A stretch of 64,000 nt of DNA, from positions 384,001 to 448,000 of the forward strand of contig CBDFJG010000002.1 in the NCBI GenBank assembly GCA_965248445.1, in the 5' to 3' direction. The translations under genes were made by a program, and so were the position numbers. Below the pieces are notes generated by a model. It did no database searches and had not been told where the DNA came from. It worked only from the letters and a program-made list of their open reading frames with translations. The DNA is from Planctomycetota bacterium (lineage in GTDB: Bacteria; Planctomycetota; JAJSAM01; JAJVHW01). Shown here one piece after another: positions 8,327-34,362 of the stretch. Numbering within the stretch: position 1 is the first letter of the stretch; every line of letters starts with the position of its first letter.

Positions 8327-8339
8327 GCGCGCGCGCGGC

Positions 8340-15797: not shown

Positions 15798-17735
15798 GTG
15801 CGCGTGTCTCCCGACGCGCAGCCCTGGCGGTCCAGACACCCTGCCCGCAACCGCGCCGCGCAGGGCGGCGGCGCGGTTGCGGGTCGCACGCTTGTCCTCC
15901 TCGCGGTGCTGGCCGTGCTGGCAACAATCGTCACCCTCGTGCTCGTCGATCGGCCGCGGTCGCACACTGTCGAGCGGGAGACGATCAGCGACACGGAGCC
16001 GCCGCCAACACCGGAGGTCGAGTCACCGACGAGAGACCGGGTGGAGCTGCCGGCGGCGCCCGACGCACCGACGCCTGAGCCGGGTTGCGGTGTCAGCGAC
16101 GATCCGGCCCTGACGTTCAGCGGCCGCTTCGTCATGTCGGACGGCTCGACCCCGCCGTCCGACATCGACTTCTCTCTGGGCCCGATCGACGCCGGCTGGT
16201 TCTCCGAGCACGACGCCACCGACGGCGTGTTCCGCGGAGACGTCGACGAATCCGGTCGCTACCGGATCGACGAGGTCTTCTCCGGCTCCACGCGCCTCCG
16301 TCCAGAGCCGCGGACGATCACCGTCCCCGGAGCACCGGTGGAGGTGACACTCACGCCGGTCCTGCCGACGGTGCTGCACGTCGTGGATGCGGACACCGGG
16401 CTGCCCCTTCCCGGCGCGACCGCGCGCGTGACGGGCGATCACTCCTACTCTGGAGCCGGGTCGTGGTACCCCGACACCGAGACGCTCGCGGGGGCGGCGC
16501 TGACCGCCGATGACGAGGGTCGGATCGCCCTCCGGTACCTCACCGACGAGCAGCGCTGGATGTGCACGGCGCCGGGCTACGCCTGGCGGCGTGTCGTGAT
16601 CGCCCTCGAGGTGGGCGGCGAGCGCCGGGTGGAACTCGCGCACGGCGGCGACCTCCGCCTGCTCATCCCCGGTGCGGCGCGTCTCGATGAGCTTTTCATC
16701 TCGGCGAAGCTGCCCGAGCACGGCTCCGTCGCGCACCTGCCCTTGCCCGACGAGGATGGGCTCGTGGTGCTGGAGCGGCTACCCGCCGGACTGTGCCGCT
16801 TCACGTTGCGCCGCGGCGGGCGGTGGGAAGGCGGCGAGATCTACGGCGAGGGCGCCGTCGAAATCGTTTCGGGTGCGAGCAACACGCTGGTGATCGAGCC
16901 GAATGTCCGCGCGGGCGCCGATCGCTTTGTCGTGACCGGAACTGTGGTGCTCGATCCGGCGTGGGACGCCGCAAGCGGCCCCGATTTCGTGAGCCTCGGG
17001 CGGGTCGGGAGGAAGACGCCGCGTGCCCGCGCGCACGTGCGGCTCGAGCGCGGGTCGGAGCCGAACACATACCGCTTCGCGACCCCGCCGCTCCCCGCGG
17101 GCCGCTACGAGGCAGCGCTACGCGACGTGAGCTGGTGCGGCGACGTGACCGTCTCGCCCGAGTCGCCGGTCGTCCGGATCGTGGTCGGCGCTCCCGTGTC
17201 GCTCGTCGTGCACGTCGTGGACGACGAGTCCGGCGCGGTGCTCCCGGCGGCGGACGTGCTGTGGAGCCCCGTCGTCAACACCGAACGCGGCGGCGCGCAC
17301 GGCCCGCTGCAGCGCAGGAAAGATCGGGGGCCGGCGGCGTTCGGCCGGATGGTCGCGCCCGGTAGAGTCGAGCTGAAAGTCTCGGCCGCCGGCCACAAGA
17401 GTGTGGAACAGGTAGTCGACGTGCCGGAAGACGCGGGTGAGGTCGAAACGACGATCCGGCTGGGAGCCGCAGGAGTCGTCGTCGTCCGGGTCCTGGTCAA
17501 CGGGCGGCCGTACGCGGGGGAGCCGCTCTGGGCCGACGTCGAGACCTCGAGGAACCGCTCGACCTCCAAGAGCACGCGGGACGGGACGGCGCACTTCACG
17601 GGCGTCGCCGTTGGGACGCGCGAGGTCTCGCTCAAGGGGCGCGATCACATCGACCTCGTTCCGCCGCAGATCGTCGAGATCCGCCCGGGCGAGACGACCG
17701 AGGTGGTGTTCGAGATCGGTGAGGAGGGCGACTGA
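15798..17735 (+). CDS. Membrane-anchored protein with carboxypeptidase-regulatory-like (prealbumin-fold) beta-sandwich repeats
   Basis: N-terminal TM; repeats such as VVDADTGLPLPGAT, VVDDESGAVLPAAD, LPAGRYE; start uncertain. Confidence 0.7.
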   Translation: MRVSPDAQPWRSRHPARNRAAQGGGAVAGRTLVLLAVLAVLATIVTLVLVDRPRSHTVERETISDTEPPPTPEVESPTRDRVELPAAPDAPTPEPGCGVSDDPALTFSGRFVMSDGSTPPSDIDFSLGPIDAGWFSEHDATDGVFRGDVDESGRYRIDEVFSGSTRLRPEPRTITVPGAPVEVTLTPVLPTVLHVVDADTGLPLPGATARVTGDHSYSGAGSWYPDTETLAGAALTADDEGRIALRYLTDEQRWMCTAPGYAWRRVVIALEVGGERRVELAHGGDLRLLIPGAARLDELFISAKLPEHGSVAHLPLPDEDGLVVLERLPAGLCRFTLRRGGRWEGGEIYGEGAVEIVSGASNTLVIEPNVRAGADRFVVTGTVVLDPAWDAASGPDFVSLGRVGRKTPRARAHVRLERGSEPNTYRFATPPLPAGRYEAALRDVSWCGDVTVSPESPVVRIVVGAPVSLVVHVVDDESGAVLPAADVLWSPVVNTERGGAHGPLQRRKDRGPAAFGRMVAPGRVELKVSAAGHKSVEQVVDVPEDAGEVETTIRLGAAGVVVVRVLVNGRPYAGEPLWADVETSRNRSTSKSTRDGTAHFTGVAVGTREVSLKGRDHIDLVPPQIVEIRPGETTEVVFEIGEEGD

Positions 17736-17797
17736 CGGTGCGGCCCCTCGAACCGTAGAGCTGGGGACACCCCCAACTACTCGTCGTTGTGACCCGG

Positions 17798-17985
17798 GAA
17801 CACAGAGAACGGTCGCATCTCTCACCGTGCGCCGGATTCACGCTGCGAACACCAAGCCCGTGAGCGGCGTGCGTGATGCGCCCGACCATGAGCACGCGGC
17901 GCGCCAAGAGGGGCGAACGCCTGCGCACGGTGAAGGAATCCACCGTTCTCGGTATTCTCATCACCGTGTCACCGGTCTCGGCATC
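17798..17985. repeat. 34-bp hairpin repeat family, inverted doublet 1 plus half copy
   Basis: Reverse copy 17798-17831; forward copy 17924-17957 CGCACGGTGAAGGAATCCACCGTTCTCGGTATTC; half copy CACCGGTCTCGGCATC 17970-17985. Confidence 0.85.
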
Positions 17986-18018
17986 GGCACGGCGGTTCGA
18001 CTACGATGAGAGCGACGC

Positions 18019-19593
18019 ATGCGAATTGCGACGTTCACGATCTGCGCCCTCGTTGCCATCTCATCGGCGGCGGCGTCACCTGTTTGCGCTCAGGATCTCG
18101 GAGAGTCACCGTCGTTCGAGGAGCGTCGCCAGCGTGCTGTCGCCGCCGGGCTCAGCGTGGTGCGCGCTCGACTGCCGGGCGAGAAGGGGTACCACCGGAC
18201 GACGTATCCCGTCCGGGTGAACCTGGCACTCGACATGTACACGCTGCTCGAGACGGGCACCCCGGCAAGCGATCCGCTGCTGCGGGGGACGATGATCGCG
18301 CTGCGCAAGGCCGACGATCCCGACATCTGGTTCTCGTTACGGAACAACAACCCCCTCATTCGAATGCTCGCAGCCCACACGACTCTCGCTGCCGTCGCGT
18401 ATGACCGCGCGCTGCTGTCGGAGGATCCCCGCGCTGAGAGCAAGCAGTCGTACAAGAACCATCACAAGTGGGTCGAGAGTCTTGTCAGCCGACTCAGCGC
18501 GCTGCTCTCGCCCGACAACGAGCGCCTGGCTGTCCAGGCCGGCACTCACACCGATGGGACGTTCCACCTCGCGCTGGTGGCGCTACTCGAGGCGCGCGAC
18601 CTCGGGCTGCACGTGGAAGACCGCCAGTTGGCCCGATGGCTGTCCGCGTCGCTCGCTTCGCAGGTGCCCGCCGATCGGCGCAACGCAGCCACGGCCACGC
18701 CGCGCGGCTTCTCGTTCCTACCGACCCGTCCACAACACCCAGGCGCGCGCGCAGCGCTGCCATCGAGTTCGATGACCGGAGGCGCACTCGCGGCCATCAC
18801 CCGTCTCATAGACGCGCTGGGCGATTCCGACCTCCTCACGGATGCGCTGGCGCAGCGCAGTCGACACGCTCTCGAGGACGGTTTGCTGTACATCGAGAGA
18901 TCGCTCGCCGATCACACCGATCCGCGGCTGCGCGGCGAGGAACACGAGGCGGTGTTCGCGTACTTCTACTCACTTGCGTGCGCCTGTGACGCCCTGTCGC
19001 TCGACCTGCTCGGCCGCTACGACTGGTACCGCGACGGCGCCGACTACCTCCTCGCGACGCAGGATGCGGACGGGAGCTGGTTCACCCGTGGGCACCGCGG
19101 AAACGGTTCCGCCGACTGCTGGGCCCTGCTGTTCCTCACGCGGTCGCTCCCCCACGCAGGGGATCGCCCCGCGATCACGCGGAGCTCCCGCGGCGTCCGC
19201 GACGTCGAGTTCGCGAGCGTCCGTGAGCGTCCGGCCGCAGAACGACGTGCGTTCGTCCGTTCGCTCGTGCCGCGCCTCCATGACGCCACAACCCGACAAC
19301 GGCCATGGTTCTTCGCGGAGATCGCACGCCTCGGCGTGGCGGCGGCCGACGAGTTGGTCGACATCGTGGACGTCCACGCGGAGCCCGACGTTCGGGCTGC
19401 TGCCTACGAGATCCTGCGCCACGTCATCGAGCCATCGCTGGATCTGGATCCGCGAGCGACTCTCGGCCGCCGCCATGCGCAGATCGCGGCATGGCGCGCC
19501 TGGATCGACGAGCGCCGCGCGCGACTGGCGTACGACCACCGAACCGGACGTCTCGTCGAGGTCGACCGCGAGCAGCGCGTGCGCGACGGCTGA
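18019..19593 (+). CDS. Secreted alpha/alpha-barrel (prenyltransferase/squalene-cyclase-repeat-like) hypothetical protein with HEAT-like C-terminus
   Basis: Signal peptide; YFYSLACAC...GRYDWYRDGADYLLATQDADGSW...WALLFL QW-like motif. Confidence 0.7.
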   Translation: MRIATFTICALVAISSAAASPVCAQDLGESPSFEERRQRAVAAGLSVVRARLPGEKGYHRTTYPVRVNLALDMYTLLETGTPASDPLLRGTMIALRKADDPDIWFSLRNNNPLIRMLAAHTTLAAVAYDRALLSEDPRAESKQSYKNHHKWVESLVSRLSALLSPDNERLAVQAGTHTDGTFHLALVALLEARDLGLHVEDRQLARWLSASLASQVPADRRNAATATPRGFSFLPTRPQHPGARAALPSSSMTGGALAAITRLIDALGDSDLLTDALAQRSRHALEDGLLYIERSLADHTDPRLRGEEHEAVFAYFYSLACACDALSLDLLGRYDWYRDGADYLLATQDADGSWFTRGHRGNGSADCWALLFLTRSLPHAGDRPAITRSSRGVRDVEFASVRERPAAERRAFVRSLVPRLHDATTRQRPWFFAEIARLGVAAADELVDIVDVHAEPDVRAAAYEILRHVIEPSLDLDPRATLGRRHAQIAAWRAWIDERRARLAYDHRTGRLVEVDREQRVRDG

Positions 19594-19630
19594 CGGACGG
19601 CCGCGCAGTGCGATGCCGCGAAGTACGGCG

Positions 19631-19755
19631 CAGTACCGAGAACGGTAGATCTCCGTGAGCGTTCTTCCACTCGCGAAGGACGCACCGGAGGGGCGGAGGG
19701 CTACGCACGGTGGGGGAATTCACCGGTCTCCGTGTTCGCACCGGTCTCGGTATTC
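19631..19755. repeat. 34-bp hairpin repeat family, inverted doublet 2 plus half copy
   Basis: Reverse copy 19631-19660; forward copy 19704-19737 CGCACGGTGGGGGAATTCACCGGTCTCCGTGTTC; half copy CACCGGTCTCGGTATTC 19739-19755; between convergent genes. Confidence 0.85.
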
Positions 19756-19792
19756 GCGTCGAGACGGAGTGTCCCGCTTTCTACGGTAGCGA

Positions 19793-20668
19793 CTACTGCT
19801 CGAGTGCGTCGATCCGTCGCTGCGATGCCTCGGCACTGCCGCCGACATGTTTATCTGAGGATCCGGCAAACTCGTCGACGACGAGCTGGTGCTGCGCGAG
19901 TGCTCTGCGCACGTCCACATTCTCGAGGTTCAGTGCTGACAGATGTGTGAAGCGTGCGCGAAGTTCGTCGCCGGTGTCCGGCGCGTTCGCGATGTCGAGG
20001 AAGCGGTCGGCAGCGAGCTGAAAGTCCTGGCGGAACACGGCCGAGAAGCCGAGCTGCGCCAGCGCTTCTATTCGCTCGCGTTGCGACGCCGCGGCCGCCG
20101 ACACAGACAACCGCAGCGTCGCTTCGGCTCCGTCTGCGTCGCCGAGCTTCCGCTGCGCGATGGCCTTCAGCGTGAGGATGCGGGATCGCTCTGGTCCCTC
20201 CATCTCGCCAGTGAGGAGGACCTCTGCCGCAGCAAGTGCAGATCCGTAGGACCTGATTGCTGCCGACGCGGACATGCGGATCGGGTGGGCCGAACGGCGC
20301 AGCTCCTCGAAGAGAGCTGATCGCGTCATGCCGCGCATGCGCCGCTGTTCTGCGCGTTGAGCGGCCGTCGAGCCGCCGGTGACCACAGTGCCGTGGCGGC
20401 CGCGGACTTCCCGCAGCAGCTCGGCGGCCTCACTGCGGAGATCCGCGACGCGTGTCGCGGCGGACTCGCTGATCGAACGGCGCGCGACGGGCGTTTCGCC
20501 CCGTGCTGCGACCGAGGCCGGGTACGGTGCCGCCACCACCACGGTGCTGTGGCTCGGCGCATCGGTCGGCGCGGCCGCTGCACCGCTTCGACCGACGAAG
20601 AAGCCCGCGAGCAGGGCCAGCGCGGCGACGACCAGCGACGGGATTCCGAGAGAGACGCGATCGCTCAC
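19793..20668 (-). CDS. Membrane-anchored TPR-like protein, paralog of the sigma-factor C-terminal domain
   Basis: N-terminal TM; AAAEVLLTGEMEGPERSRILTLKAIAQRKLGD...AADRFLDIA; GTGA-coupled to the upstream gene. Confidence 0.75.
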   Translation of the reverse strand: MSDRVSLGIPSLVVAALALLAGFFVGRSGAAAAPTDAPSHSTVVVAAPYPASVAARGETPVARRSISESAATRVADLRSEAAELLREVRGRHGTVVTGGSTAAQRAEQRRMRGMTRSALFEELRRSAHPIRMSASAAIRSYGSALAAAEVLLTGEMEGPERSRILTLKAIAQRKLGDADGAEATLRLSVSAAAASQRERIEALAQLGFSAVFRQDFQLAADRFLDIANAPDTGDELRARFTHLSALNLENVDVRRALAQHQLVVDEFAGSSDKHVGGSAEASQRRIDALEQ

Positions 20669-21555
20669 TCGTCCGACTCCGGCACGGCGCTCTCGCGAAG
20701 CGCTGTGCGCGACAGCTCGACGAAGCGCTGGACGCCCGCGTCGTCGGAGGCGCCGTGGAGCTCGAGCACGCGCTCGTGCTGTTCACGCGCGGCGCTCGAC
20801 TCTCCGATGCGCTCCAGCGAGTACGCAGCTCGCGTGCGGTACTGTGCGCGCAGGATTGGGTGGGTCTCCGGGTGGTCGGCCACCGCGAGATACCACTCGG
20901 CCGCGCTTCTGTGGTCACCGTTGCGTGCGGCAGAGTGTCCGAGCTGAGCCTTCACCATCCCCTGAAGTCGCACGGACGTTCCGGCCGCCCGCAGCGCTTC
21001 CTGTAGCGTCGCATCCGCCTGGTCGCGCTCCGCGAGTGTCCAGTAGAGCGCGCGGGCGCGCCCGACGAGCGTGCCGACGCGTTCGTCTCGTCCAAGGTCG
21101 CGCGCGAGCAGGACGTCCGCCGCGCGGAGCAGCCGGTGCGCGTCCACGACCGCCCCGGGGTGGACTTGTTTGTTGCGCAGGGCAAGCGCCAGGCGCTTCT
21201 GGAACTCGCCGGACAGTTCGAGGTTCGGCAGCGACATCAGGTGAGCGACGTCGTCAGCGATGGGTGCATCTGCGGAGGACTCCACGTACGCGCGAACCGC
21301 GGCAAGGTCTTCCCTGAGTCGCTGCACGTCGGGGCCATCCGCGCGGGCTCGGTCGTCGGGAGCGTGTCGCGCACCGGAGCTGCTCGCGGCCGCCGCGGTA
21401 CGCTCAGTTCGGTCGGCTTCGAGACGGGCGACGCGCTCGATGATCCGTGAGTACTCGGCAGTCGCGGCTTGATCGCCGGCGTCTGCGGAGAACGTCCCAA
21501 GCGCCAGTCCGGCGGCCAGGGCGACAACCATGAGGAGCGCTCCGCGCGCGTTCAC
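20665..21555 (-). CDS. Membrane-anchored TPR-like protein, paralog of the sigma-factor C-terminal domain
   Basis: N-terminal TM; LRAADVLLARDLGRDERVGTLVGRARAL...AAEWYLAVA; GTGA-coupled to the sigma gene. Confidence 0.75.
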   Translation of the reverse strand: MNARGALLMVVALAAGLALGTFSADAGDQAATAEYSRIIERVARLEADRTERTAAAASSSGARHAPDDRARADGPDVQRLREDLAAVRAYVESSADAPIADDVAHLMSLPNLELSGEFQKRLALALRNKQVHPGAVVDAHRLLRAADVLLARDLGRDERVGTLVGRARALYWTLAERDQADATLQEALRAAGTSVRLQGMVKAQLGHSAARNGDHRSAAEWYLAVADHPETHPILRAQYRTRAAYSLERIGESSAAREQHERVLELHGASDDAGVQRFVELSRTALRESAVPESDE

Positions 21556-23048
21556 TTCTCCCTCGCGGCTTCGAGTTTCTTCGCCGCATCACGGGCGAAG
21601 TCGGCCCACTTGCGCGTGCCGGCGTCCTCCGACTCACCGAACTCCCCGATGACGATCCGATACTCCGCGAGCGCCCGCTCGATGTCGTTCACGGAGGCGA
21701 AGTCCGATGCGGCCATGTAGCGGTAGTACGCGCGCGTGTCGTCCGGGGCCGATGCCTGTTCCGCGATCCCGAGGAACCACCGAGCCGCCGCGAGGCCGTC
21801 ACCGTGTTCGCGGGCGATGTACCCGAGCGCGTGAGCCGCCTTCCGACCGTCGTTGGTGTCCGTGCCGACCACCGCGATGGCTTCGTTCAGCGCGGCTTCG
21901 GCAGCGGGGCGATCACCGAGCAGCGCGTGAGCGCGTCCGCGGTAGGTAAGCGCAACGGCTTGCTGTTCGGTCGTTACCTCACGGTCGAGGACGACATCGC
22001 ATGCCTGCAGAACGTTGTCGGCATCGGCGACCTGCTTCGTGTCGCGTGCCAGTCGCAGGAGTCGATCGATCTCGGCGATCAGCGCGACGGTGGACAGACC
22101 CTCGAAGCGCGCTGATTCCTTCACGGCAGTCGAGTCCGCGAGCGCGCGGATCGCCGCGAGCTCGACTTGGAGCTGGTCAATCTCGCTGTCGAGCCCGCTG
22201 CCGATGTCGACCGCGCTCTCGGACTCCGCTCCCCGGCGTCTGCTGTTCGCGCGCCTCGTCGTTTCGTCCGCGGCGGCTTCTGTCGGTCCCTGAGACTCGA
22301 GTCCCTCCAAGCGTGCGGACAGCGTCGCGAGATCTCCGGCGGACGGCGATTCGCTCTCGGACGCCGAGAGTCGTCCACCCGCGAGTCCGACCAGGAACGT
22401 GAGAGCCACCAGCGCGACCGTCGTCATCTTCGTGCCCATTGCTGCCGCTCCCACTGTCCCCGTGCCCGCTGCCGTCGCGGCACTCGTACCCATGGCTCTC
22501 TCGGGAGCCATTCCCGCCAGCGGAAGCAGCGCTCCGAGCCAACTCGCGCGACCGCCCTCGCGGTCCAGTCGCCGCCGCAGGATGGCCGCGGCGCGGCGGA
22601 GACGACTCCGCACGGTCTCCACCGGGACGTTCAAGCGCGTCGCCACATCTCGTGGCGGAAGATCTTCGAAGTACCGCAGAAGAACGGTGGAACGGTACGG
22701 CTCGTCGAGCGCGAGCACCGACACCACGAGCCTCCGGTGGATCTCCGCTTCCTCGACGACCTCCGCCGCGGATCGCGTTGCTTCCTGGCGAGCGCTGGAT
22801 CGCTCATGGACGACCCGGCGCTTGTTCCCTCGCGCAAGATTGAAGGCCTCGCGCCGGACTACGCGGAAGAGCCACGCACGTGCTGCGCGTTCGTGCGATG
22901 GCCGGGTACGCAGCGCGGAGAGCCACGTGCGCTGCTCGAGGTCGTCCGCCGTCGCGTGGTCATGCACAAGCGTGAGTGCCAACTGCCGCACCCACCTGCG
23001 GTGGGCGAGCAGCGTCTCGAACGGCACAGGCGTGTGAGCGGAACTCAT
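21552..23048 (-). CDS. ECF sigma-70 factor with TM segment and C-terminal TPR-like extension
   Basis: Region 2 ADDLEQRTWLSAL..RAWLFRVVR; region 4 LDEPYRSTVLLRYFEDLPPRDVATRLNVPVETVRSRLRRA; TM VALVALTFLVGLAGG. Confidence 0.9.
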   Translation of the reverse strand: MSSAHTPVPFETLLAHRRWVRQLALTLVHDHATADDLEQRTWLSALRTRPSHERAARAWLFRVVRREAFNLARGNKRRVVHERSSARQEATRSAAEVVEEAEIHRRLVVSVLALDEPYRSTVLLRYFEDLPPRDVATRLNVPVETVRSRLRRAAAILRRRLDREGGRASWLGALLPLAGMAPERAMGTSAATAAGTGTVGAAAMGTKMTTVALVALTFLVGLAGGRLSASESESPSAGDLATLSARLEGLESQGPTEAAADETTRRANSRRRGAESESAVDIGSGLDSEIDQLQVELAAIRALADSTAVKESARFEGLSTVALIAEIDRLLRLARDTKQVADADNVLQACDVVLDREVTTEQQAVALTYRGRAHALLGDRPAAEAALNEAIAVVGTDTNDGRKAAHALGYIAREHGDGLAAARWFLGIAEQASAPDDTRAYYRYMAASDFASVNDIERALAEYRIVIGEFGESEDAGTRKWADFARDAAKKLEAAREK

Positions 23049-23135
23049 CTCTTCAATGATAGAGACACCGGCCGCCGAAGATTCGGTCCCAGATGGTCGA
23101 CGGAATCCACTTCTCGTAGCAGCCGCGGTCCGTGC

Positions 23136-23169
23136 GAAGACCGAGAACGGTGGAATCTCTCACCGTGAG
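23136..23169 (-). repeat. 34-bp hairpin repeat family, single reverse copy
   Basis: Reverse complement CTCACGGTGAGAGATTCCACCGTTCTCGGTCTTC; degenerate pieces nearby (23102-23116). Confidence 0.85.
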
Positions 23170-23241
23170 CCGGCCGGTATTCCGAGCGTCATTGGTCGCG
23201 ACCGCTCTGTAGGGACCTCCCGTCCTCTAGGATGTCCGTGC

Positions 23242-24447
23242 ATGAAGCTCCGGTCCTTCGCCGTCGTCCTCGGCGTCCTTCTTGTCGTGTTGTGCGTACC
23301 GCAGGGCGCCGCTCAGGATGAGGCGGAGGGTTCCGGTGCGGCAGAGACGCCCGAGGAAAGCAAGCCACCCGCCGACGCTGCGAAACGGAAACCGGCGCCC
23401 TCGCGATCCGCGGGCGGGTACGTCTTCCACCTTGTCGTGAGCGCTGACGGCTCCCGGGTCGCGGCCTCGACAGCTGACCGTGTGCGCGTCTGGGACGTTG
23501 ACGACAAGGCTCCTCTTGTGGACCGACGCGATCGCGCCTCGCACATGGTGTTCCAGGACATCGGCCTGTCGAAGGACGGTCGGTGGCTGGTCACTCTCGA
23601 ACTGGGCGCAGATCGGGAGACGATGGCTGTGGAGGAGAGGGCGAAGGTGTGGTCCGTCACGAGCTCGAGCGTGCCCGCGGCGACATACGGGGCAGAGCGG
23701 TCGCGAGTAGATGGCGAGTCGTTCCGCTGGCCGATCCTCTTGGCGACGTTCGATGCGCCTAGTCCCGGGCTCTTGATCTGGCGGCACCTCGTCGGACCGG
23801 CGGTCGTGACACCAGAGACCGAGGAACGCGGCAGCCCCTGGACGACCGAGCCCCCGGTCCCCTGGAAGAGGCCAGACGCTCCTCGGCGGATGCTGAAAAC
23901 AGACGCGCCGTGGCCGAAGTACACCAAGACCGTGTCCTTCTCACCGGACGGGACGTCGGTGGCCGTCTCCGAGATCAGCGGAGTGCAGGTCTACTCCTGG
24001 CCGGAGAAGGAACTCCTGTTCACGGCGACGGGAGACGCAACTTCGTACGACGCCGAGTTCGGAGGCGGTGGATCGGTGATCCTGGCGACCGCCTGGGAGT
24101 ATGGGGACGACGGGCAGCAGGTGGTGATCGCATTCGACCAGAAGGGCCGACGACTGTGGCAGCGCCGTGGCGTAGAGCTGCTGGCGCTCTCGCGCGCCGG
24201 ACGTATCGTCACCCTCGGTGATCTTGACCCGCGCGGCCCGCCGTGCGACGCCGTGCTCCGAAGGAGGACGGGTGGCGTCGAGTTGATCGACGCCCAGACG
24301 GGCAAGGTCCGGGCCCGGTGCCCGGGGGGCGGAAGGGGCTCGGTCACCGCCGCCGTGTTCTCTCCTGACGGCCAGTTCCTCTGGCTGGCCCACCGCAAGG
24401 CGGGCGACGTCCGACAGTACGAGCTCCCGGCGCATGACCGGAAGTGA
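23242..24447 (+). CDS. Secreted WD40-like beta-propeller protein
   Basis: Signal peptide MKLRSFAVVLGVLLVV; VSADGSRVAA, LSKDGRWLVT, SFSPDGTSVAV, VFSPDGQFL. Confidence 0.8.
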   Translation: MKLRSFAVVLGVLLVVLCVPQGAAQDEAEGSGAAETPEESKPPADAAKRKPAPSRSAGGYVFHLVVSADGSRVAASTADRVRVWDVDDKAPLVDRRDRASHMVFQDIGLSKDGRWLVTLELGADRETMAVEERAKVWSVTSSSVPAATYGAERSRVDGESFRWPILLATFDAPSPGLLIWRHLVGPAVVTPETEERGSPWTTEPPVPWKRPDAPRRMLKTDAPWPKYTKTVSFSPDGTSVAVSEISGVQVYSWPEKELLFTATGDATSYDAEFGGGGSVILATAWEYGDDGQQVVIAFDQKGRRLWQRRGVELLALSRAGRIVTLGDLDPRGPPCDAVLRRRTGGVELIDAQTGKVRARCPGGGRGSVTAAVFSPDGQFLWLAHRKAGDVRQYELPAHDRK

Positions 24448-24548
24448 CCGAGTCGGGCCGAGCCAGGACAGAATCAGGAGCGTTCGCGCGTCTCCGCGCT
24501 ACGGATCCCGAAAGAACGAGTGCGGCACCGTCTCTCGGGTAGCCCGCC

Positions 24549-27500: not shown

Positions 27501-27944
27501 CATCCGCACAGCGCGCGCATGGCGAGCGGCCGTCACGACGAGAGTGACCTCGGCGAACGGGGGGAGAGCGGCGACGTCGGCGACGCCGTCGGCACCCGTC
27601 GCGGCGCGGCCTTCGCGGTGCGGTGTGGCGGTGGCGATGTCCACATCGGAGTGGGGGACTCCCGTCCAGACGCTCACGTCGGCCGCGGCCACGGCGGCGC
27701 CGCTCGGGCCGCGGACGCGCACACGCAACGTGGCGCGTTCGTTCGCTTCGGCGGCCGGGGCGGGAGGCTCCGGTGCGGGCTCCCGGACGCGCCGGTCCGC
27801 CCCGTCATCGTGGGGCTCGACGGCCGGCCGGGGGGCAGGTGGCGCCGCGGTGCCGCCACCGCGCGTGGTCAGCCACACCAGGACGCCCAGGCCGATGACC
27901 AGCAGCAAGAGCACGCCCACCGCGGCGATCCTGCGGCCTCTCAT
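24549..27944 (-). CDS. Large membrane-anchored protein with many carboxypeptidase-regulatory-like domains
   Basis: N-terminal TM; about ten repeats of G.V.D..G.P..GA.V...T..DG.F.L.GL.PG; start 27944 or 27962. Confidence 0.85.
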   Translation of the reverse strand: MRGRRIAAVGVLLLLVIGLGVLVWLTTRGGGTAAPPAPRPAVEPHDDGADRRVREPAPEPPAPAAEANERATLRVRVRGPSGAAVAAADVSVWTGVPHSDVDIATATPHREGRAATGADGVADVAALPPFAEVTLVVTAARHARAVRMLTTPGRGVSLTVDVLLASACTLGGRVLSPDGTGIARAVVQIGRGFPWRAVTDGAGGYELLDLPWGRHEVRAGRAGMKPLRRADVILPLDGPLDIVLAEPAVLEGVVTDAETGTPLSGVRVVTGIWWGMQGGGEAVSGADGRYRIDTLPEGVLNQLTATRPGYKSPPRPPGPRGLQISVTAGQTTRRDIAMLRDAAEGAADASARIEGVVRGPAGVIAGVSVRLAGTQGRRRTTTAEDGSFAFAELTSGSWKVYALPRGLDLYDPAFMLGASRGDWSGASVDLGPGAVVTHDLTVLAGAAIVGRIVGADETPLAGARFGTAVTDAEGRFRLAGVAPGTSEEWYVWAPGHVRTTVRAAAPAEGDSDEVLVTLLPFARVRGSVRSESGDALPREVRARVVAHTGGVVAGPSGAEDLRVSTPVAVGTDGTFEAKLQWTTSGSFVVHLETPGLPTTRSDNIPISRGRDLYEIDMVLRDGVEVTGRVVDGATGSAVAGALVSLASRIDLVSAVTRQDGTFTARGDGSAPRVAVHVRAAGYLTWSSTVDSAAPEPVTARLVRVAEIRGRVVSEDGTPLAGVRVSRHGLHGLSTVTDHDGAFVLRDLHPGTVDLHFAPASADGPHVRSATVRDVAAGRDDLVVTLHPGLRIAGRVVFRGGGVADVDVQATPTGAPRGELAARAQTSGDGRFVLTGLAAGPHDLVAVPNRSSPYAREAAGAFPARAVGVNAGAGDVELVLTHGESIGGVVVDEGARPVGGLVFEAGGRTARSETDGTFEISGLPPGRYRIRVLPTSTPGAPAEVTGGEDVATGATGVRLIAREGLELVGSVTDTNGHGIAGAAVTLTSPRRVRRTVTTDEDGRFRIPGLARDAVTLTVTATDHVAERLTDHDPSTPATVRLGPALAAGGTLTDAAGAPIPDRWLDFVVEGADHLRREARTSADGSFRVDGLADRDYRVIALLTVDGHPTRIDVGSIRGGTDDVTLAAPPSDK

Positions 27945-28053
27945 TCCCGGTCCCTCCGACACGTCCCCTCGGGAGCGACCTGCTCAGACCGTCGCGCCCT
28001 TCACTCCATACAACGGACGAGGCCGGCGAGGGATCACTCGAGCGCCTGCCGAT

Positions 28054-28683
28054 TCAACGCCAAGCGACAAACCGCCCGTTCAGGAACGTGAAGCGATGTT
28101 CGGCTTTCGCCCCGCTCTCGTCTTCGAGCCAGTACGACCAGATCTCTGTGCCGCCCCCGCCCGCCCGTCCCGATCGCGGGACCCCGAAGTACTCGATCAC
28201 GTCGTCCGGCGACCTGTGGAACCACTTCCTGATGTAGTTCGAGTTCGCATGGTTGCTCGTCAGTTGACGGATGCGGTCGTCCCGCTGTGCCGACCGCAAC
28301 GGCGGTCCCTCGGCCGCCCAGCGCAGGAATCCGTCCGACTTCGTCCGTCGCTCGTCCGCGGTGAGTCCGTCCACAAGGTCCGGGTCCGGTTTCGGCGGGG
28401 GACTCACCCGTCCCGGTCGGGCTGCCGCGACGCGCGCGTCGGTCGGCGACACGGGCGCATCCCCTCGCGGCAGGTCGCCCAGCCGCCGGTGGATGCGCTC
28501 CAGCAGCTTGCGCATCTCTACGGTCTCTGCGTGCAACGCAGCGAACTCCGCGGAGGACTCGGCACCTGACGGCGCGTTGCGGGGATCGCCGTCTCCGGTC
28601 CGGGACAGCACAGCGAAGAGGATGGCAGCGGACACGCCCGCTCCCACGAGGAGCGCGGTGAGGACAGTGATCGTACGGTTCAT
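28054..28683 (-). CDS. Hypothetical membrane-anchored protein
   Basis: MNRTITVLTALLVGAGVSAAILFAVL, coiled coil, C-terminal SmpA-like segment (V..YFGVP...WSY...FTFLNG). Confidence 0.7.
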   Translation of the reverse strand: MNRTITVLTALLVGAGVSAAILFAVLSRTGDGDPRNAPSGAESSAEFAALHAETVEMRKLLERIHRRLGDLPRGDAPVSPTDARVAAARPGRVSPPPKPDPDLVDGLTADERRTKSDGFLRWAAEGPPLRSAQRDDRIRQLTSNHANSNYIRKWFHRSPDDVIEYFGVPRSGRAGGGGTEIWSYWLEDESGAKAEHRFTFLNGRFVAWR

Positions 28684-28761
28684 GAGAGCCCCCGGGTGAC
28701 TGAGCGCGCATCGTCGCGCGACGTCCAGTATCCACGGAGTCGGCCGGCTCGCGGAGCCGCG

Positions 28762-28795
28762 CGAACGGTGAAGGAATCCACCGGTCTCGGTCTTC
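28762..28795 (+). repeat. 34-bp hairpin repeat family, forward copy
   Basis: CGAACGGTGAAGGAATCCACCGGTCTCGGTCTTC. Confidence 0.88.
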
Positions 28796-28894
28796 ACTGC
28801 TCGCACCATCGAGGCCAGAACATTGCAAAGGCACGGGTGTCCCGAGTTCACGACGACTCCAGCTGCGGACGGTTCTCCGAGGTACGGTAGTGCC

Positions 28895-29617
28895 GTGGTG
28901 GTTCACACCTTCCATCTGGCGAAACCCGGGTTCGTTCCGGCGATGACGGCGCTGCTGCGACCGCCCGCGCCAGCCAAGGTTGCCGGCTTGCACCACGCCG
29001 AGTGCATGCTGCCGATGCAGCTCGGCACTGCCGTCATCTCGCCCGGGCGGTGGCAGGTCCGAGGCCTTGCGATGTTCGCGGCGTGGGAGGACGAGGCCGC
29101 GGTCGACGACTTCCTCGCGGGCACCCCTCTCGGCCGAACGCTGGCGAGAGGTTGGCACGTGCGCCTGCAGTTCCTCCGCCGCTGGGGCCATGTCTCCGAG
29201 TTCGATGGCCTGCCCCCGACCGCGGGCGAGACCGATCCCGGCGCGCCGGTGGTCGCGGTGACCCTCGCCCGCCTCGCGCTGCTGCAGGTCCCACGCTTCA
29301 TCCGGTGGGGGAAACCGGTCGAGCGCCTCGTCCGCGATCACCCCTCCACCACGTTCGCGCTGGCCGCCGCCCGGCCGTGGCGGACGATCTCGACGTTCAC
29401 GGTGTGGGAATCGGCCCGCGCAATGACCGACATGGTCCACGGCCGCAGCGCCGTCCCGACCCCCGACCGCCACGCCACGGCCATGGTCGAGCGGCGACGC
29501 AAGGACTTCCACGTCGAGTTCACCACGCTGCGCTTCACCTGCATCGCCGAGTACGGCGCGTGGGCGGGTCGGACTGCGATCGTGCCGCGTGGTCGTGACG
29601 CGGGGCCGGAGGTGTAG
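28895..29617 (+). CDS. CrtA (spheroidene monooxygenase)-like dimeric alpha/beta-barrel protein
   Basis: Duplicated domain with AMFAAWEDEAAVDDF and ISTFTVWESARAM...H..AM; start uncertain. Confidence 0.55.
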   Translation: MVVHTFHLAKPGFVPAMTALLRPPAPAKVAGLHHAECMLPMQLGTAVISPGRWQVRGLAMFAAWEDEAAVDDFLAGTPLGRTLARGWHVRLQFLRRWGHVSEFDGLPPTAGETDPGAPVVAVTLARLALLQVPRFIRWGKPVERLVRDHPSTTFALAAARPWRTISTFTVWESARAMTDMVHGRSAVPTPDRHATAMVERRRKDFHVEFTTLRFTCIAEYGAWAGRTAIVPRGRDAGPEV

Positions 29618-29699
29618 CGCGCCCGCTTGGAAGGCTCGGGGCGGTCGCAACCAAGCCAACCTAGAGGGTCTCGATCTCGCTCCGGCGATCTGGCCATCC

Positions 29700-29825
29700 C
29701 ACCGTTCTCGCTATTCGAGGTCGACCCGGACGCCGGCACCGCGTGTGGTTCGGACGACTCTGGATAGCCGCCCGGTGTGGGGCGAACACCACCCACGGTG
29801 ATGGAATTCACCGCTCTCCGTATTC
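29700..29825 (+). repeat. 34-bp hairpin repeat family, half copy plus full forward copy
   Basis: CACCGTTCTCGCTATTC 29700-29716; CCCACGGTGATGGAATTCACCGCTCTCCGTATTC 29792-29825. Confidence 0.82.
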
Positions 29826-29869
29826 GAGACGGCTCCCGTAGGGTAGCGGGCGAGGGAGGTCGGCGCCGG

Positions 29870-32302
29870 GTGCGACTGCATGGGGCCGTGGTGACGGGTC
29901 TGTTGGCGATCGCGCTCGCCGTATGCCCGAGCGTCGAGCCCGCCGTGGCGCGCGGGCCGGCGGACGCCGCGAAGAAGCTCCTGGCCGAGGGCAAGCACGG
30001 CGAGGCACTGCAGACGGCGCTCACTGCGCTGCGTACGCAGCCCGACGACCTCGACCTGCTGGAGATCGCGGCGCGCGGAGCGGCGGGCGCCGACCGCAAG
30101 GACGATGCGCTGTGGCTAGTGCTCGAAGCCACGCGGATCGCGACCGGTCGCCGCCGCGACCACCCGAAGCTCGCCGCGCTCGGGACGTTGCGTGAGGAGC
30201 TGGATCCCCTTCCGGCCGAACAACGACCCGACATCGCGCGCCATGCGGAGCAGATCCTGGCACTTGGGCGGCGGTCGCTCGAGAAGCGCTACTTCGTCAA
30301 CGCGGTGGAGTTGCTTGCGCGCCTCGAGTACTCCCACGTCGCCGTGCACGCGGAGTCGCTGCTCGAGCGGATCTACGCGGACGAGAATGCCGTCGCGGCG
30401 CTGCTGGACTCCTCCGTGCCGCTGCCGGTCACCACGACGTTCGAGAAGCGCCGCCGCAAGAGTGCGCGGGAGGAGGCGAAGCACACCGATTGGAAGAAGG
30501 CCTGGAAGCTCAAGTCGCGCAACTACACCGTCCTGTGCAACGCGGGGTACGAGCTGACCGAGCGTGCCTCGCTCGCCATGGAGCGCATCAACGGCTTCTA
30601 CCGCGGGGTCTTCGACTACAAGGCGAAGAAGCGCCGGAGCAAGACCAAGCACTGCCAGGTGCGGATCATGAAGTCACGGGCGGAGTACCTCGCGAACGGG
30701 GGCCTGGAACGCGCACTCGCGCACTACTCCCCGAGCGAGGTCGCGGTCGTCGGCTACGACCCACGCTCGCAAGGACGGCCTCTCTCGTCATTGTGGCCCA
30801 TGCTCTTCCACGAGGCCTCGCACCAGTTCACGGACTTGATCGCGAAGGCGCCCGTACCCAGCTGGCTCAACGAGGGCACGGCGTCGTACTTCGAAGGCAC
30901 GCAGCTGCGGGTGGACGGGGGGATCGACACGAACCTCGTGCCGATGGGCCGTCTGGACGATCTCGTGACCGCGCTGCAGACGGGGGAGCCGTCCGTCAAG
31001 GCGGTTGTCTCCCACGACCTGCCTGGCTCCTATCCGACCGAGTACTACTCCGTCGGCTGGGGACTCGTGTACTTCGCGCTCAACTACGAGGACGAGAAGG
31101 GCGAGCGCGTCTACGAGATGCCCTACCGGGAGTTCATGGACACGTACCGGCAGGGCAAGACCAAGCCGAAGGCGTACGAGCGCTTCGTCGAGCACTTCGT
31201 CGAGGGACCCGCGCAGGAGGGAGTCACCACGTTCGACGAGTTTGCGGAGCGCTTCACCGACTGGATCTACGCGCTGAACGACCTGCACCGCGGTCCGCCC
31301 GATCGGTCGCACGACCTACTTCTCCAGGCACGCGTCCGGCGGGAGCGCGGCCATCTGGAGCGGGCCGACGCGAGTCTGCGCCATGCCATCCGCAAGGACC
31401 CGGGCAACGTTGCGGCGCTGCTCGAGCTGGCGGAGCTCTGCACGGCCCGCGGACAGAAGGACGAGGCGCTCGCCCGGTTGCGCATGGTGGTCGAGCAGGC
31501 GGCAAGGGTCGGCGAAGTCGCCCTCCGCAACGAGGGGCTCGACTACGAGACGGTCGAGGCGCTGCTCGCGGACGCTTCCGCGCGCATCGTGGCACTCGAC
31601 GCGGACTTTGGCGCGACGCTGTCCGAGGTGGATGCCGGGTTCGCAGTGAGAATCGAGGCGTCGGCGGACGCCTACCGGGACGCGGGCTACTCACGTACCG
31701 CGACGCGGGTCATCGACGACGCGATCTCGATCCTCGACGGGCACGACGATCTCGAGATGGAACGACAGATCATCTGGGATCAGGACGGCCTCGCCGTCCT
31801 GCTCTGGCGGGAGGTCACGGTCGGTGACGACCTTGTCGGTTGGTGGAGCACGCCGGAGTTCAAGGCCGAGGGAGGCGCGCTGATCGGGAGCGTGCCCGAA
31901 GACGAGCTGCGCGCAGCGCTCCGGCAGGGCAACCTCCCGCCGCGCTACCACTTCGAGGCCCTGCTCACCGCGACGCGTCGCGGGGAGTACGGGATGTTCG
32001 GACTGGTGGTCGGCGTCGACCCCGACGGTGCGTGGGAACTCGTCGGCCCCGGAGGGGAGTGGGTCGAGGTCTCGCAGGTGTTCCAGTCGCTCGACGTACT
32101 GGGCTCCCCCCGCGGCCTCAGCCCCGAGGAGCAGAAGCACCTGCGGCTGGGCGTCGAGGTGATCCCCGGCCGGGCGCGCATCTACGTCAACGGGATGTTC
32201 TGCGGCGAGCAGGACTTCGAGCGCGGCGCGCTACGCGGCGGCATTGGAGTGTTCGCCAGCGACGCCGACGTGCGGGTGAGCGAGCTGCGCCTGGCTTACT
32301 GA
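29870..32302 (+). CDS. Secreted gluzincin-like (DUF1570/peptidase MA-like) protein with TPRs and C-terminal beta-sandwich
   Basis: LFHEASHQF plus WLNEGTASYFE; TPR segments; signal peptide; start uncertain. Confidence 0.78.
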   Translation: MRLHGAVVTGLLAIALAVCPSVEPAVARGPADAAKKLLAEGKHGEALQTALTALRTQPDDLDLLEIAARGAAGADRKDDALWLVLEATRIATGRRRDHPKLAALGTLREELDPLPAEQRPDIARHAEQILALGRRSLEKRYFVNAVELLARLEYSHVAVHAESLLERIYADENAVAALLDSSVPLPVTTTFEKRRRKSAREEAKHTDWKKAWKLKSRNYTVLCNAGYELTERASLAMERINGFYRGVFDYKAKKRRSKTKHCQVRIMKSRAEYLANGGLERALAHYSPSEVAVVGYDPRSQGRPLSSLWPMLFHEASHQFTDLIAKAPVPSWLNEGTASYFEGTQLRVDGGIDTNLVPMGRLDDLVTALQTGEPSVKAVVSHDLPGSYPTEYYSVGWGLVYFALNYEDEKGERVYEMPYREFMDTYRQGKTKPKAYERFVEHFVEGPAQEGVTTFDEFAERFTDWIYALNDLHRGPPDRSHDLLLQARVRRERGHLERADASLRHAIRKDPGNVAALLELAELCTARGQKDEALARLRMVVEQAARVGEVALRNEGLDYETVEALLADASARIVALDADFGATLSEVDAGFAVRIEASADAYRDAGYSRTATRVIDDAISILDGHDDLEMERQIIWDQDGLAVLLWREVTVGDDLVGWWSTPEFKAEGGALIGSVPEDELRAALRQGNLPPRYHFEALLTATRRGEYGMFGLVVGVDPDGAWELVGPGGEWVEVSQVFQSLDVLGSPRGLSPEEQKHLRLGVEVIPGRARIYVNGMFCGEQDFERGALRGGIGVFASDADVRVSELRLAY

Positions 32303-32338
32303 TAACGCGCGAAGAGGTAGAAGGCGGGACACCCGGAA

Positions 32339-32731
32339 CTAGTCCGAGTCACCGGCGCGGAACTCCGCGACGAGGTCGCTCTCGAGCGTCTCGAAGCGGC
32401 CCTCGAAGATCGCCCCGGTCTCGGGCATGCACTCGACCGGGCACTTCTCCTCGTCCAGGTCGCGCACCTCGGTGATCCGCTTGCCGCGCAGGAACACGCC
32501 GACCTGGCGGCTGCTGCCGGACATCGTGACGATTTCGATGTGATCGTTGGGCCACTTCCCGTCGTCCGGCTCCGGGTACACGTCGACGAGACCGAGCGCG
32601 TAGAAGCGACCGTCCTCGAGATCGAAGAACGTCGTGTCGACGTGGACGCCGTGTTCCTCTTCTCCGTGGACGGCCCGCCGCGACACGATGCGTTCGACCG
32701 TGACGGAGCCGTCCTCGAGGTCGGCCTTCAC
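32339..32731 (-). CDS. Acidic hypothetical protein
   Basis: 130-aa ORF with protein-like composition and GC-ending codons; no family recognised. Confidence 0.6.
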   Translation of the reverse strand: MKADLEDGSVTVERIVSRRAVHGEEEHGVHVDTTFFDLEDGRFYALGLVDVYPEPDDGKWPNDHIEIVTMSGSSRQVGVFLRGKRITEVRDLDEEKCPVECMPETGAIFEGRFETLESDLVAEFRAGDSD

Positions 32732-32915
32732 TCGCGCTGCGCGCTTGCGGTAGTCCGCGACGAAATCGGCCCAACGACGACAGCGCGAGCCTGCGCTGGG
32801 TCAGTGCGGGATAGACTGCACCCAACGCGACCACCGCTCGGACATCAACCAGTCTGAGTCGAATTGGCTCCGTAGACCGGCGATAACCCGCGATGCGACT
32901 GGCAAGGAGGAAGCG

Positions 32916-33854
32916 ATGGCGAGAGCTGCCACGGACTCGCGACGATTGGTTCGGCTAACCCGCGTGGGAGCGGCTATCGGAGCGTGTCTCATCGCCTACG
33001 TCCAACCGTTCGCGCATGCGGCCGACCCGGTGTTCGATCCCGGGTTCTCGTACGTCGACGTGAACCACGACCAGATGTTCGACGAGGACGACGGCGACGT
33101 CGCGCTCGTCGCCGGTGAGGTCGCCGACGGCCGCTTCGACACTCGGCGGACGGAGGGCGGCTACAAGAAGGTCGTGCGGGATGCGAGCCTCGTCATCCTC
33201 ACCACACCGGCAGCGAGGCCGAGGAGGATCAGCTATCGGACCGACGCAACACTGGTGATCGCCGCCGACCTCTCAGCGAAGCACGGCATGCTGCTCCGGG
33301 CACGCGACGCAGTGTTCATCGGTACTTACCTCGACGGCAGCACAACGACGTTGCGGGCGCGACGGATTGCCATCAGGACCAGAGGCTCAATCTTCAGCGA
33401 CATGGATGTGTTCGAGGGCGTCGGTCGAGGGTCACGCGTGTCGATACAGTCGCAGCAGAACTTCGTGCTGAGCAACGGCGTTTTCGTGGCGGACCGCTCC
33501 GTAAAGGTGAATTCGAAGAGGGGCCGCGCAGGGATCGTAGGGTGTCGACTGGCCGCCTGCGCACCACGAGGGAGGGTCCGCGTCCTCGCGTTCGGCATCG
33601 CGGACGCCAGGGCGGCGACGCTTCGTGCGCACAAGACAATCCAGATCCGAGGCAGCACTTTCGTCGATCTGAGCGACGCAAGCGCGGCCATTGTGGATGG
33701 CAGCGAAAACGGAACGATCCAGATCAACGGAGAACGCGTAGTCGTCGACGGCGCGACCATACTGGCTCCGAACGGCCCGCGAATTCAGGGCGAGCAGTCT
33801 CTGACACCGACGCTGATCGGTGAGGGGACTCTCCCGTGCGCAGCCGACGGCTAA
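32916..33854 (+). CDS. Secreted hypothetical protein (beta-helix-like, possible Ca-binding loop)
   Basis: AGGAGG RBS; signal peptide; YVDVNHDQMFDEDDGD. Confidence 0.7.
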   Translation: MARAATDSRRLVRLTRVGAAIGACLIAYVQPFAHAADPVFDPGFSYVDVNHDQMFDEDDGDVALVAGEVADGRFDTRRTEGGYKKVVRDASLVILTTPAARPRRISYRTDATLVIAADLSAKHGMLLRARDAVFIGTYLDGSTTTLRARRIAIRTRGSIFSDMDVFEGVGRGSRVSIQSQQNFVLSNGVFVADRSVKVNSKRGRAGIVGCRLAACAPRGRVRVLAFGIADARAATLRAHKTIQIRGSTFVDLSDASAAIVDGSENGTIQINGERVVVDGATILAPNGPRIQGEQSLTPTLIGEGTLPCAADG

Positions 33855-33895
33855 CCGGGCACGACGCAGTAGAAACTAAGCACACTTCTGGTCGG

Positions 33896-34135
33896 TCAGG
33901 CCGCGCCACAGGCCAACATGTGTACTTCGTTGCCAGTGTCCCGCTTCGTAACGGCGCTGAGTAAGGACCGCCGCCCGACGGATCCGGCTGCCGTCGGCCC
34001 AGCGATCACTTCATCTTGCGCATCTGGGAGCGGTGCCGCATCGGGCTCCGCGACACCGGCGAGGTGGAGCCCCGCCCCGACGCCCATCGCGAAGCCGACG
34101 ATCAGCATTCCGGCGGCGATGGCCAAACGGCTCAT
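33896..34135 (-). CDS. Short ORF with signal/TM segment, possibly a gene remnant
   Basis: MSRLAIAAGMLIVGFAMGVGAGLHL then degenerate-looking tail. Confidence 0.3.
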   Translation of the reverse strand: MSRLAIAAGMLIVGFAMGVGAGLHLAGVAEPDAAPLPDAQDEVIAGPTAAGSVGRRSLLSAVTKRDTGNEVHMLACGAA

Positions 34136-34165
34136 GTCACCCACGCTAGCACGACTGCGCCGCAC

Positions 34166-34295
34166 GTACTGAGACCGGCGAACGTCTTCGACCTGTGTAC
34201 CCGCGCGCGCCCCAGTCGGCTCTGAGCACTCGCGCGAGGCATCGACTCGCCACCGCCGAGTTACACGGGGCGAAAACGTCCACCGGTCTCGGTAC
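34166..34295. repeat. 34-bp hairpin repeat family, inverted doublet 3 (divergent)
   Basis: 34166-34200 reverse complement GTACACAGGTCGAAGACGTTCGCCGGTCTCAGTAC vs 34260-34295 GTTACACGGGGCGAAAACGTCCACCGGTCTCGGTAC. Confidence 0.8.
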
Positions 34296-34362
34296 GACCA
34301 CGGCGACGGAGCCGCGTGTTGGGGGGCGCGCGGGGAGATCTCGAGTGATGGTGGGGGAGGGT

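Follow-up and report, generated by a model that had tools for sequence, protein, structure and literature searches.

A ~50-nt intergenic repeat bounding a planctomycete gene array is probably a terminal-inverted-repeat element of a Y1 (HUH) transposase system

We analyzed a 64,000-nt stretch of a Planctomycetota genome (contig CBDFJG010000002.1, positions 384,001 to 448,000; hereafter the window), in which copies of a short intergenic repeat lie among unrelated genes between 17.8 and 34.3 kb. The original prediction, made from the letters of this DNA, described a 34-bp hairpin repeat and proposed that it marks the recombination or capture sites of an integron-like system of gene accretion. The evidence points in another direction. 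The repeat, ~50 nt long, quite probably serves as the terminal-inverted-repeat element in a Y1 (HUH) system of the TIRtron/TIRYT kind. Such a system is related to the pairing between repetitive extragenic palindromes (REPs) and REP-associated tyrosine transposases (RAYTs), and the copies most likely spread in trans. In all likelihood, then, this is a small mobile repeat whose kind is already known rather than a new system of gene capture. Coordinates given without a contig or locus name are window positions.

The decisive locus lies in a genome of a sister genus in the same family (G005; the genome that holds the window, 5.4 Mb in four contigs with the window on contig C2, is called G000). Contig C40 of G005 (locus L185) carries a gene for a 332-aa Y1 protein at 701-1696, and two copies of the window motif, which we call family A, bracket it with their tails outward (616-667 on the minus strand, 49.4 bits; 1737-1774 on the plus strand, 38.7 bits). 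Because these two copies enclose the enzyme gene, the sister genus has a Y1 transposase element whose terminal inverted repeat is the window motif. The sole G000 homologue of the C40 protein (44% identity) is encoded on contig C4, and a Pfam Y1_Tnp search of G000 returned the same single gene (C4:497095-498096, 337 aa, with HFH and RYIDGN motifs), which scored 25.5 bits in the genome search and 22.8 bits as an open reading frame against a cut-off of 23. The residues of the HUH and tyrosine motifs (H60, H62, and Y119) are invariant in an alignment of the four-member clade. The G000 protein scored 58.1 bits (E = 8.6e-16) with the NCBIfam REP-associated tyrosine transposase model NF047646, under the cut-off of 80, and had no sequence match among solved structures. 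Its C-terminal 136 aa gave matches to HTH_28 (E = 0.03) and HTH_23 (E = 0.051), and the protein of a second Y1 gene in G005, on contig C78, matched HTH_23 at E = 4.1e-4; all three matches are under the curated cut-offs.

On either side of the Y1 gene of G000 lies one arm of a 36-nt inverted repeat of a second family, B; the two arms are 100% complementary and 1080 nt apart. Family B combines the window motif's tail with its left arm as reverse complement, arranged differently, and family B tails face outward as do those of the family A doublets. Family B is also dispersed: 20 copies are listed in G000, including one doublet and two small arrays, with 12 of the 20 pointing into gene ends and 7 lying between convergent genes. 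That a HUH/Y1 enzyme acts in trans had been suggested from the hairpin and tail, and this suggestion is supported by the lone Y1 gene of G000, which sits on another contig with a repeat bearing the same tail, and by the Y1 gene of G005 that is flanked by the motif itself.

The tail extends beyond these two genes. Three related Y1 genes, in G005, G004, and G007 (38 to 40% identity), have flanking inverted repeats with the same kind of tail at their outer ends (57 nt at 77% for the C78 gene of G005; 49 nt at 86% in G004), and the Y1-flanking repeats of G004, G006, and G007 are likewise dispersed, with doublets. A scan of the clade with one genome per species yielded 252 Y1 relatives, of which the best 80 were kept, mostly from records titled Planctomycetota; 46 of these had enough flanking sequence. 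At 28 of the 46 loci the best flanking inverted repeat had the pattern C[CG]GTA within its outermost 30 nt, compared with 36 of 920 control windows. Shared to this extent across the Planctomycetota, the tail is a candidate recognition or cleavage site. More distant Y1 genes of the same bacterial family (L080 in G007, L081 in G006, and L082 in G001) have their own, unrelated inverted repeats of 38 to 54 nt, with 91 to 96% complementarity and ~1.1 kb apart.

We aligned 15 family A copies from the two genomes together with 150 nt of flank. Similarity began abruptly at a GGGGCG box and stopped abruptly after the tail; the unit is therefore ~50 nt long, not 34, and has sharp edges. Its 5' part consists of the box GGGGCG[AG]A and ~6 variable bases. 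In the middle, 8-bp inverted arms (CGCACGGTGA and TYCACCG) surround a GGAA- or GAGA-type center, and the 3' end is formed by the tail CTCGGTAT, also written TCTCGGTAT, then T/G and C/G. The hairpin that the original prediction described can be drawn, but its predicted folding energy does not stand out in this genome (z = −0.41 and −0.49); in G005 the effect is moderate (z = −2.8 and −2.5). The arms are conserved as sequence: across 64 copies, 79.5% of cells paired, compared with 77.9% in shuffles (15 of 500 shuffles were as high), and real two-sided changes occurred at only 3 of the 8 pairs of the main stem. An Rfam scan of 15000-37000 found nothing relevant (one unrelated match, E = 0.3), and terminator-like sites numbered 3 against 4.7 expected.

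Family A occurs as single copies or as (-)(+) doublets with the tails outward, the latter being frequent in both genomes. The gaps between inner ends in nine doublets were 62, 48, 56, 61, 55, 92, 89, 56, and 114 nt (48 to 62 nt in six of the nine), and the spacer sequence is not conserved. A miniature inverted-repeat transposable element with a conserved body was considered and rejected, as the sequence between paired copies fails to align and spacers are no more alike than shuffles, except for the spacer of L067 in G005 compared with the inner flank of the G005 Y1 element. Immediately inward of its 5' box, the Y1-flanking copy has an extra short palindrome (L185 668-700), which recurs in G005 at L051, on the inner side of the copy at 202-251, and at L067 3353-3439. 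Because this palindrome recurs beside both, the sequence suggests that the L051 and L067 copies derive from the left end of the Y1 transposase element. Tandem duplication was seen in the tail: an 18-nt unit is present twice at 19721-19756, and two family B copies of G000 (C3:1685246-1685300 and C1:380472-380510) carry tail pieces of 10 to 15 nt two to three times over. As speculation, such duplications may be traces of Y1-driven copying or moving events.

Within the window, scanning with the 34-nt consensus gave two sites at up to 3 mismatches (17924+ and 28762+; 0 expected by chance) and six at up to 7 mismatches (17798-, 17924+, 19704+, 23136-, 28762+, and 29792+). A sequence-only profile, R1, built from 13 copies of this genome and with E-values that refer to the whole genome, recovered the same six sites (E = 1.4e-13 to 1.0e-8), and these were also the six found at E ≤ 0.001. 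Including one degenerate copy and four tail-only units, all elements fall within 17797-34294. The R1 search found no copy in the rest of the 64-kb window, in agreement with the earlier remark that the housekeeping-type flanks lack them. A 13-nt tail pattern matched 10 times in the window, all inside 17941-34293, compared with 0.93 matches expected. The elements are as follows.

17797..17844, minus strand: full family A copy that forms the left half of a (-)(+) doublet and is directed into the 3' end of gene 15798-17735 (R1 37.3 bits, E = 1.0e-8)
17909..17958, plus strand: full family A copy, the best of the genome, which forms the right half of the doublet; the start at 18019 is 61 nt downstream (R1 52.8 bits, E = 1.4e-13; 0 mismatches to the 34-nt consensus)
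17970..17982, plus strand: tail-only unit, 13-nt tail pattern with 1 mismatch (R1 9 bits, E = 8.5)
19632..19673, minus strand: degenerate copy, left member of a doublet between convergent genes (R1 14.8 bits, E = 0.13; tail pattern with 1 mismatch at 19635-19647)
19687..19738, plus strand: full family A copy that is directed into the 3' end of the minus-strand gene 19793-20668 (R1 47.4 bits)
19739..19756, plus strand: tail-only unit, a tandem duplicate of the tail before it, exact 13-nt tail pattern (R1 12.9 bits)
23135..23175, minus strand: family A copy that lacks the GGGGCG box at its 5' end; the sigma gene start at 23048 is 87 nt downstream, and the divergent start at 23243 is ~68 nt away (R1 41.1 bits over model positions 13-53)
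28748..28796, plus strand: full family A copy; the start at 28823 is 27 nt downstream (R1 43.5 bits)
29700..29712, plus strand: tail-only unit, 13-nt tail pattern with 1 mismatch (no R1 match at E ≤ 10)
29776..29826, plus strand: full family A copy; an in-frame start, at 29870, is 44 nt downstream (R1 43.4 bits)
34279..34294, plus strand: tail-only unit, exact 13-nt tail pattern at 34281-34293 (R1 10.7 bits, E = 2.5)

The count of nine 34-bp copies given in the original prediction is thus reduced to the six recovered by R1: the copy placed at 19631(-) is the degenerate one, that at 34260(+) is a tail unit only, and that at 34166(-) had no R1 match at E ≤ 10. The half copies reported at 17970, 19739, and 29700 hold up as tail-only units by the 13-nt tail pattern, and for the weak remnants suspected near 24526 and 27983 we found no R1 match at E ≤ 10. 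An intergenic position, also noted earlier, was confirmed for all full copies provided that the shorter start codons are taken (18019, 23048, 23243, 28683, 28823, and 29870); the gene calls here and below are our own, based on GC content at third codon positions (GC3), and are not an annotation. The repeats produce false N-terminal extensions of several genes of the locus, and we advise masking them in annotation.

We ran the scan of whole and related genomes that the original prediction had called for. At E ≤ 1e-4, R1 detected 14 copies in G000 and 31 in G005 (38 in G005 at E < 1e-3), and none in the other 15 of 17 genomes of the order. Six of the 14 G000 copies lie in the window locus within 12 kb, a clustering far beyond chance by our own Poisson arithmetic. 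The remaining G000 copies adjoin ordinary genes, including those for Bax-inhibitor-like, FAD monooxygenase, methyltransferase, ankyrin, and VWA proteins and two insertion sequence (IS) transposases; outside the window locus the repeat therefore occupies ordinary intergenic regions, which the original prediction had itself named as counting against gene capture. The proposal that the repeats mark compositionally odd genes was rejected genome-wide (median GC3 percentile 50.3, n = 42, p = 0.98). Each of the two genomes has an IS66-family transposase gene with a family A copy upstream in divergent orientation, at ~125 nt in G000 (L022, C2:12000-19500, gene at 1123-2697) and at ~39 nt in G005 (L049, 3065-4083), where the IS66 match spans only the C-terminal part of the transposase. 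At L055 in G005, a microsatellite at 3905-3945 (a 7-nt unit repeated about five times) lies inside a four-copy (-)(+)(-)(+) cluster between two divergent genes.

The arrangement resembles one already described. In the parts consulted, PMC3733652 (Di Nocera 2013) reports Y1 genes flanked by long inverted repeats (TIRtrons, TIRYT) that form moderately abundant repeat families occurring as dimers or clusters, and it names a planctomycete among the rich cases. The consulted parts of PMC6006769 (Quentin 2018) equate TIRtrons/TIRYT with TnpA-Y1 subclass 2.1, whose proteins are long, with a C-terminal helix-turn-helix, and give Y---NP as the class 2 signature; a GGGG[AT][CG]A[CG] motif is reported for most, not all, such inverted repeats. 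Our system shares with these a single-copy Y1/HUH gene between inverted repeats of 36 to 50 nt, the moderate abundance of the same repeats as dimers and clusters (14 family A copies in G000 and 31 in G005; 20 listed for family B), and a long protein with weak helix-turn-helix matches in its C-terminal extension and the class 2-type Y---NP motif in two of the four clade members. It differs in four respects: the GGGG[AT][CG]A[CG] motif is replaced by GGGGCG[AG]A in family A, and family B has no GGGG box; what is conserved is a tail, C[CG]GTA[CT], at the outer end; this tail is common to two repeat families whose inner halves differ; and in G000 the family of the window is not the one that flanks the enzyme gene.

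The repeat can also be set beside the REP/REPIN elements and their RAYT transposases, reportedly the subject of work by Nunvar in 2010 and by Bertels and Rainey in 2011. Like these, it is a short intergenic imperfect palindrome present in both orientations, forms inverted doublets with a nonconserved spacer, is lineage-specific, and includes inverted copies that bracket a transposase gene; family B copies are moreover often found just after stop codons and between convergent genes. In contrast to REPs, neither a GTAG nor a CGTC tag is conserved in our alignments, copies number in the tens (14 in G000, 31 to 38 in G005) and not in the hundreds, the unit is longer (~50 nt) with box and tail outside the palindrome, and the protein falls short of the RAYT model cut-off (58.1 against 80 bits). 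The top results of a literature search on RAYT, REPIN, and Planctomycetes contained nothing specific to this repeat family.

IS200/IS605 TnpA and RAYT enzymes recognize a hairpin in single-stranded DNA. By analogy, the Y1 enzyme would recognize the arms and tail, probably as a single-stranded hairpin, would cut at or near the tail, and could thereby copy or move units and doublets in trans through intergenic DNA. The 16.5-kb cluster in the window may have formed by local accumulation among poorly conserved low-GC3 genes, with tolerance of insertions among such nonconserved genes as the simplest guess for the pile-up, and some copies may secondarily influence transcription. The cassette boundaries of the locus would then be end repeats of a Y1 tyrosine transposase system and not a new recombination system. 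The two genomes would also offer a natural pair for an under-studied HUH branch (TIRYT, subclass 2.1), with the motif flanking the enzyme gene in G005 and, in G000, an orphaned motif and an enzyme gene that carries a rearranged repeat with the same tail. The consulted parts of PMC3733652 and PMC6006769 define no recognition or cleavage site for TnpA-Y1 subclass 2.1.

Several observations weigh against this interpretation. No transposition event, empty site, or cleavage was observed. In G000 it is family B, not family A, that flanks the Y1 gene, and the inverted repeats of the second Y1 gene of G005 (C78) are not dispersed. Only one of eight doublet spacers resembles the inner flank of the G005 Y1 element; because the spacers are unlike one another and unlike that flank, the doublets are not plainly deletion derivatives of the element. 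The 14 copies in G000 are few for a REP-like family, and the presence of six of them within 12 kb is unusual for a dispersed repeat. Paired-change support for the stem is weak, and a search for paired changes in the small tail hairpin found none. To these can be added the observations that favor a regulatory role.

Under that alternative, the motif would be mainly regulatory, serving either as a promoter recognized by the extracytoplasmic function (ECF) sigma factor encoded in the array or as the operator of a dimeric transcription factor, and in either case the genes that lie between copies would make up an exported-protein regulon. The sigma gene is context and not part of the repeat:

21552..23048, minus strand: ECF-type sigma gene with a long C-terminal extension (Pfam Sigma70_r2 and r4_2; NCBIfam sigma70-ECF, 65.1 bits)

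We assigned orientation classes by eye to 58 copies (14 in G000, 44 in G005): 35 are turned toward a gene start and 17 toward the 3' end of a gene, with 6 unclear. As in an autoregulated ECF promoter, the motif lies ~85 nt upstream of the ECF sigma gene and of exported-protein genes, and 35 of the 52 classifiable copies face a downstream start, mostly 10 to 240 nt away. The copy at 23135-23175(-) is 87 nt upstream of the sigma gene, two sigma paralogues of G005 have a co-oriented copy 81 to 84 nt upstream (L068 and L073), and ankyrin genes of the two genomes (69% identical) each carry an upstream copy, though their architecture differs. Arms kept as sequence with little paired change are expected of a protein site on duplex DNA, and low copy number and clustering fit a regulon.

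However, one-third of the classifiable copies (17 of 52) point into gene 3' ends, including strong ones (52.1, 48.3, and 47.4 bits), and at least six family A sites, among them 19632-19756 in the window, lie between convergent genes, as do 7 of the 20 family B copies. Orientation and distance to the downstream start are not fixed as they would be for an ECF sigma-dependent promoter. The ECF promoter consensus is AAC...CGT, a spacing that the repeat lacks; no conserved pair of blocks with −35/−10 spacing was seen when the alignments were inspected by eye, and conservation covers the whole 50 nt, the would-be spacer included. A sigma-70 promoter scan gave 0 sites. Around the best full-length G005 homologue of the sigma gene there is no copy (highest score 5.3 bits), and at the transposase gene both bracketing copies point away from the gene. 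The motif is also absent from metagenome loci with relatives of the array gene 28823-29617: such relatives are encoded on 113 metagenome stretches, and among the best 80 of the 113 (46 to 82% identity) none of the 41 loci scanned contained the motif and none of the 80 had a neighboring array gene in common. Because 17 of the 58 copies face gene ends, the repeat is not a strict promoter, and the doubt expressed earlier about a simple promoter role was well placed. The pattern of copies is unlike a promoter regulon and hard to reconcile with an operator. We regard a mainly regulatory motif as unlikely. Gene 28823-29617(+) itself belongs to a widespread family, with no Pfam match and a faint NCBIfam match to spheroidene monooxygenase (30.8 bits against a cut-off of 300).

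The second alternative to the Y1 end-repeat reading is that the copies are cassette recombination sites, at which gene blocks are captured, excised, and reshuffled by a tyrosine recombinase in the manner of an integron or by a Y1 enzyme that moves cargo between tail-outward repeats. From 17.8 to 34.3 kb, each gene block has a copy or a tail unit at its borders, gene neighborhoods are not conserved in relatives, and the array is compositionally distinct (window 18019-33854), with 7 of its 10 genes in the lowest 15% of GC3 among 3519 called genes and flanking genes at the 46th to 99th percentile. The earlier description of the array genes as mostly encoding exported proteins fits their hydrophobic N-termini, judged by eye only. 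Like attC sites, the repeats are imperfect inverted repeats with a variable center that lie between unrelated genes and would act in trans. Unlike integrons, the system lacks IntI, R/L boxes, and an attI-like end. Cassettes are not uniformly oriented, the direction of copies with respect to genes being mixed, and copies are scattered singly over the genome. The attC core boxes are RYYYAAC and GTTRRRY; the alignments bear out the earlier statement that the motif lacks these as well as the GTAG of classic REPs.

A tyrosine recombinase gene does abut another array, at C3:252.9-256.25 kb, but the enzyme is a generic Xer-like one encoded next to an IS1595 transposase gene. Among 22 tyrosine recombinase matches in G000, the two nearest to repeat clusters, this one included, scored 32.7 (the C3 enzyme) and 44.8 bits against the integron integrase cut-off of 265 (TIGR02249), and both are generic Xer-like. 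A Pfam scan found no recombinase among the genes of the window array, as had been stated. Thus, of the enzymes that the original prediction had asked to be sought beside the copies, a Y1 gene bracketed by them was found in G005, whereas the tyrosine recombinases near clusters are not of the integron type. Outside the window locus, neighbor genes have ordinary functions and the unremarkable GC3 given above (median percentile 50.3, n = 42). Among 32 motif-bearing loci of G005, window array genes recur only as sigma paralogues and as a homologue of gene 28823-29617, which lies ~2.2 kb downstream of a four-copy cluster and is not bracketed by copies. In the C3 region (L169, C3:249500-262000), the recombinase gene (6839-7951) and the IS1595-family transposase gene (8181-9179) stand directly beside a five-copy array (C3:252898-256254).

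We also compared contigs of four runs from one sample over 16000-35500, bearing in mind that contigs drop rare variants. In three of the four runs the whole stretch was present without differences, and the listed joints have sides of just 20 to 34 letters. One joint touches the repeat (23169 to 17909); its source is a 57-kb contig whose match to the window is confined to 17909-17954 and has 4 differences, and which probably represents the C3 doublet of this genome. In these contigs, from which rare variants would have been dropped, we saw neither an excision nor a variant with a breakpoint at the repeats, nor any joint at the repeats of the kind that the original prediction had proposed to look for. 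The integron-like gene-capture idea thus finds no support: there is no integron-type integrase beside the arrays, attC boxes are lacking, neighbor genes elsewhere are ordinary, and joints at the repeats were not found. We consider it extremely improbable that the copies are cassette recombination sites. A related proposal, by analogy with the transposase gene, is that the Y1 enzyme moves whole gene blocks in trans and so builds arrays of lineage-specific surface-protein genes. The pair 23135(-)/28748(+) brackets three exported-protein genes (23135-28796, 5.7 kb) in the same tail-outward geometry as the transposase gene. We judge such movement very unlikely; if it did occur, it would amount to cassette shuffling by a single-strand tyrosine transposase, not by an integron integrase.

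The sigma gene of the array showed two further features. The C-terminal half of its protein (residues ~213 to 491) is paralogous to the exported proteins encoded just downstream at 20665-21555 (E = 5.7e-19) and 19793-20668 (E = 1.6e-10), all within 19793-23048 on the minus strand. The sigma family is also greatly expanded, with 18 matches in this genome and up to at least 37 among the matches listed per relative genome, and with open frames of up to ~2600 aa.

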